This document shows, one piece after another, positions 1-4,543 of a stretch of 4,543 bases of DNA. The stretch is from IMG/VR virus record IMGVR_UViG_2695420746_000012; one strand, given 5' to 3'. The position numbers and the translations under genes are program-made. How positions within the stretch are numbered: position 1 is the stretch's first letter; every line of letters starts with the position of its first letter. The notes below the pieces were generated by a model, which had not been told where the DNA came from, searched no databases, and worked only from the letters and a program-made list of their open reading frames with translations. This DNA comes from a virus (Duplodnaviria; Heunggongvirae; Uroviricota; Caudoviricetes).

Positions 1-11
1 CGCGTTATTAG

Positions 12-55
12 TTATCTTATTCTCAAATTGTGTTACGATAATCCGAGCGGATAAT
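12..55 (+). promoter_or_regulatory. Candidate telN promoter elements (uncertain)
   Basis: Two GATAAT hexamers (37-42 and 50-55) lie within a GATAATC direct repeat (37-43, 50-56). TTGTGT at 28-33 is a possible -35 for the second one with a 16-bp spacer, but that would start transcription inside the telN Shine-Dalgarno, so the true promoter may lie upstream of the window. Confidence 0.2.
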
Positions 56-68
56 CAGGAGAGGAAAG

Positions 69-1964
69 ATGAGCAAAGTAAAAATCGGTGAATTAATAAA
101 CTCACTTGTTAGCGATGTTGAGTCAATAGATAACTCTGACCGTCCTCAAGGGGAAAAAACAAAAAAAATAAAGGCTGTTGCATTAAAATTTAAAAATGCA
201 TTATTTAATGACAAGCGAAAGTTTAGGGGGAAAGGATTAGAAAAAAGAATTACAGCCAACACATTCAATGCCTATATGAGCAGGGCCAGAAAACGGTTTG
301 ATGATAAACTTCATCATAGCTTTGAAAAAAATATACATCGCCTATCTGAAAAGTATCCTTTATATAATGAGGAGCTATTGTCATGGCTTTCTCTACCTGC
401 TGCCGATATTCGCCAAAGAATGTCAGCTTTACAGACAAAATTAAAATTAATTCTCCCTTTATCAGAAGATTTATCTAATATAAGAATTGGTGATAACAAA
501 AGTCATAATAAGTTATTAAAATTATCAAATAAATATAAAGAGTGGCAATTCGCCATTTCTGATTTAACTAGCGATAACTGGAAAGATAAGCGCGATTATT
601 TATATAAATTACTACAGCAAGGATCTGCCTTACTTGAGGAGTTGAATCAGCTAAAAGTTAACCATGAGATTCTCTATCATCTTCAACTAAGCCCTGCCGA
701 ACGAGCATCTATCCAGCAACGATGGGCGGACGTTCTGCACAATAAGAAACGTAACGTGGTGGTCATTGATTACCCTAAATATATGCAAGCTATTTACGAT
801 ATTATAAATAGCCCTGCTACATTAAATAATCTAAACACTCGTTCAGGTATGGCTCCTTTGGCATTTGCACTTGCTGCATTGTCAGGAAGACGAATGATTG
901 AGATTATGTATCAAGGTACATTTACTGTTTCTGGTAAGTATACCGTTGATTTTTTAGGCCAAGCTAAAAAAAGAACTTCTGATGATATAACCAGAAAAAT
1001 ATATACATTATGCGAAGCAAAAACATTTGTTTATTTAATAAATGTACTTCGCTCATGCCCAGCAGCATCTGATTTTGATGATGTCGTTAAAGGTTATGGA
1101 GATAACGACACACGCTCTGAAAACGGACGTATTAATGCCATATTAGCAAAGGCTTTTAACCCGTGGGTTAAATCATTTTTCAAAGATGACCGCCGTGTTT
1201 ATAAAGATAGTCGTGCTATTTATGCCCGTATTGCGTATGAAATGTTTTTCCGCGTAGATCCTCGTTGGAAAAACGTAGATGAGGATGTTTTCTTTATGGA
1301 AATTTTAGGCCATGACGATGAAAACACTCAATTACACTATAAGCAATTCAAGCTGGCCAACTTCTCAAAGACATGGAGGCCAAATACTGGAAACGAAAAT
1401 ACCAGGCTGGAAGCATTGCAGCAGCTTGATGACAAAATGCCTGGATTCGCCAGAGGAGATGCCGGGGTTCGTCTGCATAACACAGTTAAGCAGCTGGTAG
1501 AGCAGGACCCCTCTATAAAAATCACGAACAGCACTCTAAGAGCATTCAAATTTAGCCCAACAATGATTAGTCGATACCTGGAATTTGCTGCTGATGCTCT
1601 GGGGCAATTTGTTGGCGAAAATGGACAATGGCAGCTGAAAATAGATACTCCAGAAATCGTTATGCCTGACGAAGAAGAGCTGGTAGCAATACCTGAACAG
1701 ACGGATGAATTATCAGAGGATGACGATCTGGATGACGACGAAATTGAGATAGAGGAAGAGGAAGAGGAAGAGAGCGTAGAAGAACAGCAACCGCCCGCGC
1801 CTTCTTCACCTGTATCTAAGCCGGTATTTAAGCCTGTGAGAAATATTGGTGATGGCTCATACGTTGTTGAGTTTCATTATAATGGCCAGAATTATGCTTG
1901 GTCCGGCAGTGCAAACAGCCCTATGTCAGCAATGCAGTTAGCATGGCTGACATATTTCGGATAA
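69..1964 (+). CDS. telN: Protelomerase (telomere resolvase) TelN, N15 family
   Basis: 631-aa ORF with Shine-Dalgarno AGGAGAGGA at 57-65 before the ATG at 69. From memory it matches phage N15 TelN along its whole length, including MSKVKIGELI at the N-terminus, SRAIYARIAYEMFFRVDPRW, and the C-terminal YAWSG motif. Tyr424 (LHYKQF), Arg275, Lys300 and His415 sit at positions I recall as TelN active-site residues. An acidic Glu/Asp-rich linker precedes the C-terminal domain, as in TelN/TelK. Confidence 0.95.
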   Translation: MSKVKIGELINSLVSDVESIDNSDRPQGEKTKKIKAVALKFKNALFNDKRKFRGKGLEKRITANTFNAYMSRARKRFDDKLHHSFEKNIHRLSEKYPLYNEELLSWLSLPAADIRQRMSALQTKLKLILPLSEDLSNIRIGDNKSHNKLLKLSNKYKEWQFAISDLTSDNWKDKRDYLYKLLQQGSALLEELNQLKVNHEILYHLQLSPAERASIQQRWADVLHNKKRNVVVIDYPKYMQAIYDIINSPATLNNLNTRSGMAPLAFALAALSGRRMIEIMYQGTFTVSGKYTVDFLGQAKKRTSDDITRKIYTLCEAKTFVYLINVLRSCPAASDFDDVVKGYGDNDTRSENGRINAILAKAFNPWVKSFFKDDRRVYKDSRAIYARIAYEMFFRVDPRWKNVDEDVFFMEILGHDDENTQLHYKQFKLANFSKTWRPNTGNENTRLEALQQLDDKMPGFARGDAGVRLHNTVKQLVEQDPSIKITNSTLRAFKFSPTMISRYLEFAADALGQFVGENGQWQLKIDTPEIVMPDEEELVAIPEQTDELSEDDDLDDDEIEIEEEEEEESVEEQQPPAPSSPVSKPVFKPVRNIGDGSYVVEFHYNGQNYAWSGSANSPMSAMQLAWLTYFG

Positions 1965-1975
1965 AGCATACGGTA

Positions 1976-2008
1976 AAGGCACCGAATTATCGGTGCCTTG
2001 TTGTGTTG
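1976..2008. terminator. Intrinsic terminator hairpin between convergent telN and the antirepressor remnant
   Basis: Perfect 10-bp inverted repeat AAGGCACCGA (1976-1985) / TCGGTGCCTT (1990-1999) with loop ATTA, followed on the + strand by the T-rich GTTGTGTTG (2000-2008). It starts 12 bp after the telN stop; on the - strand it is followed by the weaker TTTACCGTATGCTTTAT. Confidence 0.6.
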
Positions 2009-2009
2009 C

Positions 2010-2174
2010 CTACCTCGCCTGCCCCTTTTCGTCCTCATCAAACTTTCTGATGGCCGTAGAATCAATACCCGACGCCATACACACATCAGATGCAACAAAC
2101 CACGGTTCGCCGTTAATCATCACTACACGAACCTGATGCTCTTCCGGAAAGGAAAAGACTGCTAACGCGCTCAT
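2010..2174 (-). pseudogene. Truncated phage antirepressor, BRO-N/Ant N-terminal domain fragment (54 aa)
   Basis: My own translation of the - strand (below the ORF track's length cutoff): MSALAVFSFPEEHQVRVVMINGEPWFVASDVCMASGIDSTAIRKFDEDEKGQAR. It carries the BRO-N hallmark (FxF...R-hydrophobic-I-[DN]-GEPWFVA-DV...DDEKG) and has a strong Shine-Dalgarno AAGGAGG (2180-2186, - strand) 5 nt before the ATG at 2174. It stops at 2010-2012, right against the telN terminator hairpin, whereas full antirepressors are roughly 200-300 aa. Confidence 0.6.
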
Positions 2175-2404
2175 TCAGCCTCCTTATCGTGCAGCAATTG
2201 CGACGAGAGCGATGCTGAATACCCCTGTGCTTCGTGTGTTAGCTCACACGCAATTTGAAGGAGTTTCCCTGCTTCTGAGAGATAAATCGACGCCTCACAA
2301 CTGGAGATTGTCCGATGGGCTGATGATACGAGCGCATAGACCTGAGCCAGACGTTCATCCAACGATTCCAGCAGGCCAACAGTGTTCATTTTTACCTGAT
2401 TCAT
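2171..2404 (-). CDS. Hypothetical 77-aa protein, translationally coupled upstream of the antirepressor fragment (Icd-like by position only)
   Basis: ORF with Shine-Dalgarno GAGGTGG about 6 nt before the ATG at 2404. Its TGA stop overlaps the antirepressor ATG (ATGA at 2171-2174). No sequence family recognised; the placement matches icd in P1 immI / N15 immA. Confidence 0.5.
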   Translation of the reverse strand: MNQVKMNTVGLLESLDERLAQVYALVSSAHRTISSCEASIYLSEAGKLLQIACELTHEAQGYSASLSSQLLHDKEAE

Positions 2405-2565
2405 GCAGCCACCTCGCGCACCGGAATACGGGCAGACAATACCAGGACAAACCGGCTGGCGAACTGGCGACGAGCTTCCCGTTCAGATGACGCGATAGTG
2501 GAAAGATGATGGATGTGTGACTTTTTGTCTGTGCGAACGACTGCCGCAAATTTGAATTTGAACAT
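2401..2565 (-). CDS. Small leader ORF (54 aa from ATG 2565), ORFx-like, coupled to the next gene
   Basis: The ORF track starts this frame at a GTG (2613) inside an RNA hairpin; the first ATG is at 2565 with a weak AAGAG Shine-Dalgarno. Its TGA stop overlaps the ATG of the 77-aa ORF (ATGA at 2401-2404). Protein from the ATG: MFKFKFAAVVRTDKKSHIHHLSTIASSEREARRQFASRFVLVLSARIPVREVAA. Whether it is translated is uncertain. Confidence 0.3.
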   Translation of the reverse strand: MFKFKFAAVVRTDKKSHIHHLSTIASSEREARRQFASRFVLVLSARIPVREVAA

Positions 2566-2589
2566 GGTATGCACTCTTGTTTGGAAGAA

Positions 2590-2700
2590 CAGTGCTACCA
2601 CCAGAGTTCTCACGCTCTAAGGGGGTGGTAGCCCAGACGGGGGTGAGAATACCGGCCCAAACGATACCGGCCAGCCTTTCGGCTGCCCCGCCTGAGCCAC
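2590..2700 (-). ncRNA. Candidate structured regulatory RNA / leader (c4/CI/CA-like immunity RNA region); boundaries approximate
   Basis: In - strand sense: a 5-bp hairpin with GAAA tetraloop (CAGCC-GAAA-GGCTG, + coordinates 2672-2685); a 9-bp stem GCTACCACC/GGTGGTAGC (2594-2602 / 2624-2632) enclosing a 4-bp hairpin with loop CGUGAGAA; and a single-stranded UUCUCAC (2643-2649) complementary to that loop. It sits directly upstream of the ORFx-like RBS. Confidence 0.3.
2606..2615 (-). repeat. 10-nt motif GCGTGAGAAC (- sense), copy 2, in a hairpin loop (stem AGAG/CTCT, 2603-2618)
   Basis: Exact 10-mer also present at 2780-2789. Here it lies in the loop of a 4-bp hairpin nested within the 9-bp stem 2594-2632. 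Confidence 0.5.
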
Positions 2701-2730
2701 CATAATTCGGATATGCGCAGGCTTATATAC

Positions 2731-2757
2731 ACACAAAAAAACACGCTGGCGCGTGTT
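2731..2757 (-). terminator. Intrinsic terminator within the leader of the antirepressor operon
   Basis: - strand: 7-bp stem (+ coordinates 2740-2746 / 2751-2757, AACACGC/GCGTGTT), loop of 4 nt, followed by UUUUUGUGU (+ strand A-run 2733-2739). It lies between the two GCGTGAGAAC hairpins. Confidence 0.45.
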
Positions 2758-2776
2758 GTGCGTCGCTTGGGATATT

Positions 2777-2792
2777 CGGGTTCTCACGCCCG
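2777..2792 (-). repeat. 10-nt motif GCGTGAGAAC (- sense), copy 1, in a hairpin loop (stem CGGG/CCCG)
   Basis: Exact 10-mer at 2780-2789, flanked by the 4-bp inverted repeat CGGG (2777-2780) / CCCG (2789-2792). Same loop as copy 2 but a different stem sequence, i.e. compensatory pairing. Confidence 0.5.
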
Positions 2793-2812
2793 GCTGCGGG
2801 ATTTACCGCAGC
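2793..2812. promoter_or_regulatory. Operator-like palindrome GCTGCGG-N6-CCGCAGC
   Basis: 7-bp perfect inverted repeat separated by 6 bp (GATTTA), immediately downstream (- sense) of the candidate promoter. Could be a repressor operator or the 5' hairpin of the leader RNA. Confidence 0.3.
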
Positions 2813-2818
2813 GGAGTA

Positions 2819-2848
2819 ACTTTACCGTCAAAACGACGCACACGTCAA
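2819..2848 (-). promoter_or_regulatory. Candidate sigma70 promoter for the leader / antirepressor operon
   Basis: - strand -35 TTGACG (+ coordinates 2843-2848), 18-bp spacer, -10 TAAAGT (2819-2824). A second TTGACG at 2826-2831 has no good -10. Weak match, inferred mainly from position. Confidence 0.2.
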
Positions 2849-2868
2849 TAATTTGCAAAGACATTTTA

Positions 2869-2900
2869 CCCCGTGACCAGTCACGGGGACAGGTGTTTTT
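2869..2900. terminator. GC-rich hairpin with flanking A/T runs; probable terminator separating the four-gene operon from the antirepressor module
   Basis: Inverted repeat CCCCGTGA(C) / (G)TCACGGGG (2869-2888). On the + strand it is followed by ACAGGTGTTTTTAT; on the - strand it is preceded by an A-run and followed by TAAAATGTCTTTG. It lies 62 nt downstream of the - strand operon stop (2950), so it plausibly ends that operon, but the U-tract is better in + orientation. Confidence 0.4.
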
Positions 2901-2949
2901 ATAGTTTGCTTGAACGAGTGATCAGAAGTTGATCGTTAATCAAAGGCCA

Positions 2950-3237
2950 TTACGGATTAAGAGAGTGGAAATACCTAACTAACTTACCGGCATCATCACA
3001 TTTTTCTTTATCTTCTTCCTTAACATAGCCGCGACAGAAGGCTGAATAAAATTTCGCATTTTCAGAAGCAAAAGCAGCCGTCGAAAGGAGCAGTTCTTTG
3101 CATGATTCTTTTGATGCAGCATCGGGATTATTTTTACATGCAAGCTCCGCTGATGAGTTAATAACAGAAATGCTATCTTCCTGGGCATAAACCGCAGCAG
3201 AAAAGGCAAAACATAAAACCAAAATAAAACTCTTCAC
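2950..3237 (-). CDS. Small secreted protein (95 aa, predicted signal peptide, 4 Cys in mature part), unknown function
   Basis: The ORF track begins this frame at a GTG (3261) with no Shine-Dalgarno. A GTG at 3237 is preceded by a strong AGGAG (3243-3247) with a 5-nt spacer, giving MKSFILVLCFAFSAAVYA|QEDS..., a typical Sec signal peptide. The mature part is Lys/Glu-rich with four cysteines. Last gene of the operon. Confidence 0.55.
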   Translation of the reverse strand: MKSFILVLCFAFSAAVYAQEDSISVINSSAELACKNNPDAASKESCKELLLSTAAFASENAKFYSAFCRGYVKEEDKEKCDDAGKLVRYFHSLNP

Positions 3238-3257
3238 TTTATCTCCTGTAACAGTTA

Positions 3258-3659
3258 TCACAACTCAATCAACTTTTTAGCATCAGCCATACGCTTCAAC
3301 CAGTAATCAACAATCGGTTGCTCATCCACAGAATGTTTACCTGGTATAACTCGCCAGCTGTCTGCCGAAAGGCTACCGTATCTATGCGGGAAAAGGCATT
3401 TCTTTAGCTCCTGCCATGTGCTAGGAAAACCGTCTGCCAAAGTGCCAATTAACAGAAAAGGGACAAAAATCAGGGCTACAAACCATCGGGCAAGAAAGTG
3501 CTCAACAATAACCTCTTCACCGTTATAGTAATACGCATACGTATCCCATATACGAATTTTCCTTACCCTAAAAATGGCCTTATGCTGAGAACGACTTAGC
3601 TTGATGCGAATGTATCCCTTATCCAAGAGGGATTGGTGTTTGTATGATTGAACAGCCAT
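3258..3659 (-). CDS. Hypothetical membrane protein (133 aa from ATG 3659; one central TM helix)
   Basis: The track starts this frame at a GTG (3671) overlapping the upstream gene; the first ATG (3659) is 2 nt after the upstream stop and is preceded by GTGGGG. It has a basic N-terminal region (IRIKLSRSQHKAIFRVRKIRIW) and a hydrophobic segment WFVALIFVPFLLIGTLADGF. No family recognised. Confidence 0.5.
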   Translation of the reverse strand: MAVQSYKHQSLLDKGYIRIKLSRSQHKAIFRVRKIRIWDTYAYYYNGEEVIVEHFLARWFVALIFVPFLLIGTLADGFPSTWQELKKCLFPHRYGSLSADSWRVIPGKHSVDEQPIVDYWLKRMADAKKLIEL

Positions 3660-3661
3660 TT

Positions 3662-3988
3662 TTAACCCCACTCACCATCAGCAAACAAAGCGTTATACTC
3701 TGACAATGGTAGACGGTTGCCCTCGATGTAGAGATTCAGTTCATACTTCGTCTCCGGGTTTTCCTTGTCGGCTCGTTCCCAACGCTCAGCAGCCTTACAC
3801 GCCAATAATTCCACTGCTTTCAGATAATCCTCCGTACGGAACCAGCCAAAGATAAGGCCACGATCTGTTACAGCCCAGGCAACCTTTTTTTCTTCCTCCT
3901 GGATAGCCTTAATGCGTCGATCGCATTCATCCCGGCAAAACTGCAGCTGACGGTAATCAAGTTTGTCCAAAAATGCAGTAGTAGACAT
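3662..3988 (-). CDS. Hypothetical soluble protein (108 aa)
   Basis: ATG at 3988 preceded by Shine-Dalgarno GGGGAG, which lies in the last codons of the upstream gene, 4 nt after its stop. No hydrophobic segment; charged and helical-looking. No family recognised. Confidence 0.55.
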   Translation of the reverse strand: MSTTAFLDKLDYRQLQFCRDECDRRIKAIQEEEKKVAWAVTDRGLIFGWFRTEDYLKAVELLACKAAERWERADKENPETKYELNLYIEGNRLPLSEYNALFADGEWG

Positions 3989-3992
3989 ATTT

Positions 3993-4184
3993 TTACTCCC
4001 CGTTCACCGAAAAATCACGATAGAAACATTTCCACATACGATAAGTCTGCGCGAGTTGTTCACCACGAAACATCGCCTTCCTGGCCTTCATGTTTTCCTT
4101 GTGAGACTTTCGATCTATGAACCAAAACCATTGCTGGAACACACAAAGCAAGAGACACAAAGATAATATCCACTGATTACCCAT
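3993..4184 (-). CDS. Hypothetical small membrane protein (63 aa, N-terminal TM helix)
   Basis: Taking the ATG at 4184: MGNQWILSLCLLLCVFQQWFWFIDRK..., an N-terminal hydrophobic helix followed by a basic tail. The Shine-Dalgarno is weak (AGGG about 9 nt upstream). The same frame stays open upstream across the IS2 boundary, so the true 5' end is uncertain and the gene may be IS-truncated. Confidence 0.4.
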   Translation of the reverse strand: MGNQWILSLCLLLCVFQQWFWFIDRKSHKENMKARKAMFRGEQLAQTYRMWKCFYRDFSVNGE

Positions 4185-4220
4185 AGAAAGCGCCCTGCTC
4201 TTCGTAGCTGCATGGGCTAT

Positions 4221-4261
4221 TAGACTGGCCCCCTGAATCTCCAGACAACCAGTATCACTTA
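4221..4261 (+). repeat. IS2 left terminal inverted repeat (IRL), approximate extent
   Basis: Terminal approximately 41 bp of IS2 beginning TAGACTGGCCCCC; the right-hand copy lies outside the window. Confidence 0.7.
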
Positions 4262-4311
4262 AATAAGTGATAGTCTTAATACTAGTTTTTAGACTAGTCA
4301 TTGGAGTACAG

Positions 4312-4543
4312 ATGATTGATGTCTTAGGGCCGGAGAAACGCAGACGGCGTACCACACAGGAAAAGATCGCAATTGTTCAGCAGAGCTTTGAACCGGGGAT
4401 GACGGTCTCCCTCGTTGCCCGGCAACATGGTGTAGCAGCCAGCCAGTTATTTCTCTGGCGTAAGCAATACCAGGAAGGAAGTCTTACTGCTGTGGCCGCC
4501 GGAGAACAGGTTGTTCCTGCCTCTGAACTTGCTGCCGCCATGA
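4312..4543 (+). CDS. insC: IS2 OrfA (transposase regulatory protein InsC), 5' part only
   Basis: ATG at 4312; translation [77 protein letters not shown]... is the IS2 OrfA N-terminus with its helix-turn-helix. The ORF runs off the window end with no stop, which is why it is absent from the ORF track. Confidence 0.9.

Follow-up and report, generated by a model that had tools for sequence, protein, structure and literature searches.

What did an insertion sequence interrupt when it came to lie 36 nt before the first start codon of a row of four small genes: the promoter of those genes, the 5′ part of a longer gene, or another feature? The original prediction favored a displaced native promoter or 5′ region, and allowed both for a first gene truncated by IS2 and for expression of the four genes from the element itself. 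We addressed this question in a 4,543-bp stretch of DNA (hereafter the window, meaning this whole stretch), which constitutes one complete draft contig, CXCD01000222.1 (assembly GCA_001260475.1), and whose positions 5–4247 are also a contig (ERR025705_133) in the independent Logan assembly of run ERR025705. With high confidence we read the locus as part of an N15-like phage-plasmid whose repA has an IS2 inserted in its 3′ end, with the four genes as the distal part of the repA block, the open frame that crosses the junction as a chance occurrence, and the contig as ending at a repeat.

The IS2 terminus and its junction

Aligning window 4221–4543 to the reference IS2 (U82084.1; 1331 bp, delimited by the 5-bp duplication GCCTG, starting TAGACTGG and ending CAAATCCA) revealed 320 identical positions over the first 323 bases of the reference, counted from base 1, and many further IS2 copies align from 4221 at 95–99%, with matches from this position in many phage and plasmid records. 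The segment 4221..4543 (+ strand) corresponds to the first 323 of the 1331 bp of this IS3-family element and ends with the contig. It opens with the left inverted repeat (IRL; 4221..4262, + strand), which is placed by the same alignment and is 42 bp long in IS2 (PMC3299598), and it contains the first 77 codons of orfA (4312..4543, + strand), which encodes an InsC-type HTH protein (Pfam HTH_Tnp_1, E = 4e-17) and runs off the contig end. Because orfA starts at 4312 on the plus strand, the window holds the left end of IS2, and the predicted start of the terminus at 4221 is borne out by the alignment.

Judged from the window sequence, the junction is ambiguous by 1 nt, as IS2 starts with T and a T also follows GCTAT in the relative that lacks the insertion (GCTAT|TCCC); the canonical IS2 boundary puts it at 4220/4221. 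The GCTAT itself (4216..4220, no strand assigned) adjoins the IRL and is present as a single copy at the site in the IS-free relative, and is a candidate 5-bp target-site duplication. Compared with IS2 insertions described in E. coli genes, plasmids and prophages, the window shares the exact IRL terminus, OrfA about 90 nt inside it and 99% identity to the reference, and the site lies within the coding sequence of a mobile element, like the known IS2 copies in SfX int or Stx-phage nleG. What sets it apart is the site, codon 1318 of repA in an N15-like phage-plasmid, which is the only new element of the comparison, and the fact that only 323 bp of the element are visible. The event is an ordinary, strain-private IS2 insertion.

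The junction is on record for one run only, in that a look-up of the 84-aa Logan product spanning it returned ERR025705 alone. Logan contig ERR025705_133, a second independent assembly of that run, crosses it by 27 nt. An assembly chimera, with no IS2 at the site, might be considered given a junction near the end of a short draft contig from a single run, but two different assemblers yield the same junction, and it breaks at the exact first base of the IRL, which is rare for a random misjoin; we regard a chimera as exceedingly improbable.

Megablast against plasmids and complete E. coli genomes returned no record covering the observed junction, exact-pattern scans did not find it in genome, metagenome or viral contigs, and the predicted far junction (IRR + GCTAT + TCCCGG...) was absent from the genome contigs searched, the prediction under simple insertion being GGGGCAAATCCA + GCTAT + TCCCGGTAATGTATT. 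At the protein level, the predicted altered replication protein (RepA′; 1319 aa plus a 28-aa IS2 tail) as query led to a cluster of 1187 members represented by a RepA of the normal 1331 aa, and a query with the junction peptide matched fragments of ordinary RepA proteins as well as unrelated ORFs that extend into IS2, with no fusion among the matches. A search with the neighboring CB repressor gave a cluster representative that was 99%, not 100%, identical.

IS2 is abundant in the species: of 5426 complete E. coli genomes, 4690 contain matches to it (median, 3 places per genome), and the contig stops inside IS2 because short-read assemblies break at multicopy repeats. This bears on a further explanation, namely that this IS2 marks where an IS2-mediated rearrangement joined two sequences, be it a deletion that removed repA and further DNA, an inversion or a cointegrate with another replicon, and that the contig is a repA-less fragment of the phage-plasmid. 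Such an explanation can draw on a contig that stops inside IS2 with the other end unseen, on the absence of both the observed and the predicted far junction from the collections searched, and on several related records that are much longer than about 46 kb. Positive support is missing, however, the IS2 terminus meets its target exactly at IRL base 1, as in ordinary transposition, and assembly breaks at multicopy IS2 are normal with short reads, such that we consider a rearrangement decidedly unlikely. The far IS2 end lies outside the contig, and for the preferred reading we infer a simple insertion, a GCTAT duplication and the RepA′ tail that would follow from them.

The flank of IS2 in IS-free relatives

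Megablast of the window returned 24 plasmid records and phage PhiR46_1 that match positions 1–4221 (plasmids at 95–99.9% identity, covering 1–4221), all of which stop at 4221. The closest IS-free relative, CP056845.1, shows 6 mismatches in 4220 nt. Over 4100–4220 it is 100% identical to the window and then continues ...CATGGGCTAT|TCCCGGTAATG on into a 1331-aa RepA ORF. By identity with this ORF and by RefSeq annotation in relatives, window 4177..4220 (− strand) is assigned to an orphaned repA 3′ end in which 2 nt from codon N1318 precede 13 codons (SPCSYEEQGAFYG) and a TAA stop, and repA thus ends on the minus strand as ...REYITGN SPCSYEEQGAFYG*, with its TAA at window 4179–4177. The stop overlaps the ATG of the 63-aa gene (ATGGGTAA), and in relatives L002 and L003 (RefSeq and PhiR46_1 annotation) the two genes overlap by 8 nt.

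In the IS-free relatives, then, the 36-bp flank reads as repA coding sequence and not as promoter or 5′ region. Since CP056845.1 and the other relatives carry the RepA end here, IS2 is placed inside repA, at codon 1318. Judged by these alignments, the element interrupts the primase-helicase gene, the single replication gene of the plasmid, within codon 1318 of 1331, with the transposase genes antisense to repA. The product is named ‘plasmid replication protein, CyRepA1 family’ in RefSeq, an annotation that 16 complete E. coli plasmids carry over window 3900–4221, and ‘primase’ in the PhiR46_1 record. A representative of the RepA family matches NCBIfam CyRepA1 with 258 bits (cutoff 200) over residues 525–1034, and there is a weak Toprim match at residues 274–383. 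In the 1331-aa form of the relatives, RepA is 75% identical to N15 gp37; only the last 44 nt of repA are inside the window.

The distances given in the original prediction hold, as relatives annotate the same first ATG at 4184 and positions 4185–4220 amount to 36 nt. Its interpretation of those 36 nt as a displaced promoter or 5′ region is contradicted by CP056845.1 and the annotation of the relatives. Comparison with IS-free loci therefore upholds the start of the first gene and puts RepA codons where a promoter region had been expected. What the comparison usefully corrects is the identity of the interrupted feature, which is a replication gene, and of the supposed operon, which is the gene block downstream of repA.

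The open frame across the junction and expression from the IS2 end

A 120-aa ORF (3993..4355, − strand) does cross the IS2 boundary, as had been pointed out; it consists of the frame of the 63-aa gene extended into antisense IS2 and is not a gene. Of the two origins proposed for it, chance or a longer gene truncated by IS2, the comparison with relatives favors the former. Upstream of the ATG, the frame of the 63-aa gene is open for 64 codons in the window versus 40 in three IS-free relatives, with the extra open length derived from antisense IS2 sequence, and the 63-aa gene and repA occupy different minus-strand frames. Because the frame closes 40 codons upstream in relatives, where the gene is annotated from the same ATG, and because it differs from that of repA, the 120-aa ORF is best read as a chance product and not as the remnant of a longer gene.

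Expression of the four genes from the IS2 end was evaluated by a consensus scan, which is crude and could miss weak promoters and which found no minus-strand sigma-70-like promoter in window 2900–4543 at its threshold. Known IS2 fusion promoters use an outward −35 in the IRR plus a −10 in the flank (review, PMC9330008), and PIRL, a promoter in the IRL, points into IS2 (PMC3299598). The fusion promoters of the ampC, acrEF and neoR cases likewise feature an IS2 end a few tens of bp before a start codon. Here, in contrast to those cases, the adjoining end is the IRL rather than the IRR, the genes read away from the element, antisense to the transposase, and a promoter-like match is absent by the consensus scan. 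The earlier suggestion that the genes may be IS-driven finds no backing in the scan of 2900–4543, nor in the placement of the documented outward −35 in the IRR (PMC9330008), as it is the IRL that adjoins them.

These observations together weigh on the view that IS2 displaced the promoter or 5′ region of an independent operon, or truncated its first gene, and that an outward or hybrid IS2 promoter may drive that operon. An IS2 only 36 nt from the first ATG, an ORF open across the junction and the known capacity of IS2 to create fusion promoters (PMC9330008) are what speak for it. Set against these are a flank that consists of repA codons 1318–1331 in all relatives, a first-gene frame that closes 40 codons upstream in relatives and is annotated there from the same ATG, a minus strand on which the scan of 2900–4543 found no promoter-like site, and the opposed placement of the documented promoter parts, with the outward −35 in the IRR and PIRL facing inward. 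The view is largely refuted by the IS-free loci, and we consider it very unlikely.

Four small genes downstream of repA

Reading on from repA along the minus strand, the first of the four genes (3993..4184) encodes a 63-aa small protein with a hydrophobic N-terminus, and its ATG (4184–4182) is annotated in relatives as the start of a 192-nt gene; this protein had no family match in Pfam, PHROGs, PDB sequence or NCBIfam searches. It is followed by a 108-aa gene (3662..3988, − strand), a homologue of N15 gp35 with 64% identity (phrog_10878, E = 9e-52, function unknown), a 133-aa gene (3258..3659, − strand; phrog_15458, E = 2e-77) and, last of the block, a 95-aa gene whose product has a signal-peptide-like N-terminus (2950..3237, − strand; phrog_26765, E = 4e-63), the latter two also annotated in relatives. 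Searches for the functions of the four small proteins in Pfam, PHROGs, PADLOC, NCBIfam and PDB sequences returned unknown-function PHROGs only. The label ‘Spackle exclusion protein’ on the 95-aa homologue in PhiR46_1 (L003 3086–3373) was set aside, being without Pfam, PADLOC, NCBIfam or PDB sequence support.

The block is tightly packed on one strand directly after repA, with intergenic gaps of 4, 2 and 20 nt and with the repA stop overlapping the first ATG. N15 has repA (37) and then genes 36, 35, 34 and 33 on the same strand, and the window likewise has four small genes after repA. The two differ in that three of the four genes are without a detectable N15 counterpart, the 108-aa gp35 homologue being the fourth, and in the spacing between repA and the next gene, an 8-nt overlap here versus an 11-nt gap in N15. 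Because the flank reads as repA coding sequence and the layout is as in N15 (37-36-35-34-33), the four genes are best described as distal members of the repA gene block, and the independent four-gene operon of the original prediction is not retained.

From the gene layout, the overlap and the promoter scan we infer that transcription of repA continues into the four genes, which would form the distal end of its transcription unit, and that translation of the first one is coupled to that of repA. Scanned against the consensus, relative L002 gave no promoter-like site on the minus strand anywhere from the region where repA starts to where the block ends. To the extent that the insertion separates the four genes from upstream transcription, the original prediction agrees with our reading. 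IS2 is classically polar. Because this polarity is combined with 1.3 kb of antisense IS2 placed between the four genes and the transcription and translational coupling coming from repA, their expression would be lowered rather than IS-driven, and reduced expression is the most likely outcome.

Two complete relatives possess insertion sequences within the same block. ISKpn26 in the ETEC plasmid NZ_LR883007.1 (L009, 7470–9094) lies between the 95-aa and 108-aa genes, with the 133-aa gene not annotated there, and an IS2 in E. albertii NZ_CP126913.1 (L010, 9485–10713) separates the 133-aa gene from the final gene of the block. On the evidence of these two relatives, the four-gene block seems to be dispensable and a tolerated landing zone for IS elements. 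If the plasmid is still maintained in the strain, this would suggest that normal expression of the four downstream genes is not required, in agreement with these insertions.

The N15-like phage-plasmid setting

The element carrying the window is assigned to the N15-like linear (telomere) phage-plasmids of E. coli by a TelN with TelK domains, a C4/CI-type immunity RNA, and synteny with N15 genes 29–37. The right arm of N15 comprises telN (29), an antirepressor locus (30–32), genes 33–36 and repA (37), and the window shares this order and its strands. The 631-aa protelomerase gene (69–1964, + strand) has the Pfam TelK_N, muzzle, catalytic and stirrup domains of the TelN/TelK family, and next to it are a truncated Bro-N antirepressor gene, a gp31-like gene and an icd-like gene (2010–2565, − strand), which match N15 gp30, gp31 and gp32, respectively. 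Because gene order and strands are like those of N15 genes 29–37, and given the megablast relatives, the window is placed at the beginning of the right arm of such a phage-plasmid, on the telomere side.

Alignment to PhiR46_1 begins at position 135 of that phage, which has its telL at 1–22, with the telomere outside the contig. By this placement the contig begins 134 bp in from the telL hairpin and ends within IS2. Both contig boundaries are assembly breaks at repeats and not biological ends, because both coincide with repeats. Beyond annotation the significance of the case is small; where a contig ends in an IS, an assembly break is the usual cause.

Several further observations concern this arm. 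The Bro-N antirepressor (AntA/gp30 homologue; window 2010–2174, − strand) is 54 aa long here and in many relatives, whereas its length is 264 aa in N15 and some 260 aa in an E. albertii relative; most of the antirepressor gene beside telN appears to have been deleted in this lineage. An RNA locus for secondary immunity (P1/P4/N15 type) occupies 2621–2825 on the minus strand, with a C4 antisense RNA (2621–2707, 75 bits), an isrK-like element (2736–2812, 67 bits) and a match to the a1/b1 target model that stays below the threshold (2773–2825, 43.3 versus 46.7 bits), all on that strand; window 2594–2703 has 83% identity with the P4 ‘cI’ region. A 56-aa ‘Phage_ASH / ash family’ ORF (2617–2787), which overlies the immunity RNA elements, is probably not a protein gene. 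In the ETEC plasmid NZ_LR883007.1 (L009), three or four proteins (WP_001386898.1, icd-like, WP_159391950.1 and BRO) are annotated twice, inverted, at 712–1939 and 6243–7470, flanking a shortened protelomerase gene; the record is labelled circular, and the inverted duplicate looks like an assembly reading around a hairpin telomere.

Predicted consequences for RepA and replication

Homology of RepA to N15 gp37 stops at residue 1316, RepA C-termini differ among homologues past ...REYITG, and the recognized domains are confined to residues 274–383 and 525–1034, far upstream of the IS2 site. This suggests that the insertion fell in a poorly conserved, dispensable-looking C-terminal tail. Simple insertion with a GCTAT duplication would cost RepA its last 12 residues and add 28 from the right end of IS2, the predicted RepA′ being 1319 aa, ...ITGNS, then the 28-residue WICPYISRHLLSLNPLQARCRRYSRGER before a stop. 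At the end that is visible, IS2 supplies a stop at 4257 in the frame of repA itself. Because the change falls in the variable tail, outside the Toprim and CyRepA1/helicase regions, RepA′ may still work, and it probably retains replication function. If the plasmid is still maintained in the strain, it would be a natural experiment suggesting that the last 12 RepA residues are dispensable.

A more far-reaching proposal is that an IS2-mediated rearrangement or cointegrate left telN, the immunity RNA and the four genes on another replicon without a working repA or, in a milder version, that a RepA with its last 12 residues swapped for 28 IS2-encoded ones still runs the linear plasmid. The proposal is unlikely; the milder version, if true, would map the C-terminal tail of RepA as dispensable in vivo.

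The origin is reportedly situated in the 3′ part of repA in both N15 and PY54, and the 3′ end of PY54 repA is said to be dispensable in trans. In the repA 3′ part of relative L002 (6920–6970), about 240–290 bp from the equivalent of the IS2 site, an AT-rich palindrome (TCCATATATATTGA) lies between the two arms of a 13-nt inverted repeat (TGGATCGCGTTTT / AAATCGCGATCCA), and together they could be a candidate piece of the internal origin. N15 starts its replication inside repA, and the gene also contains a centromere site (PMC2847241); N15 RepA has been reported to act only in cis (PMC3155836).

The last residues of RepA, (A/L)(F/L)YG or FCG, are conserved among homologues (P0001–P0005, P0015, P0017), and the roughly 10 residues preceding them vary. 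The pattern agrees better with a constraint imposed by the start of the next gene, which overlaps this end (TATGGGTAA), than with one imposed by the function of RepA.
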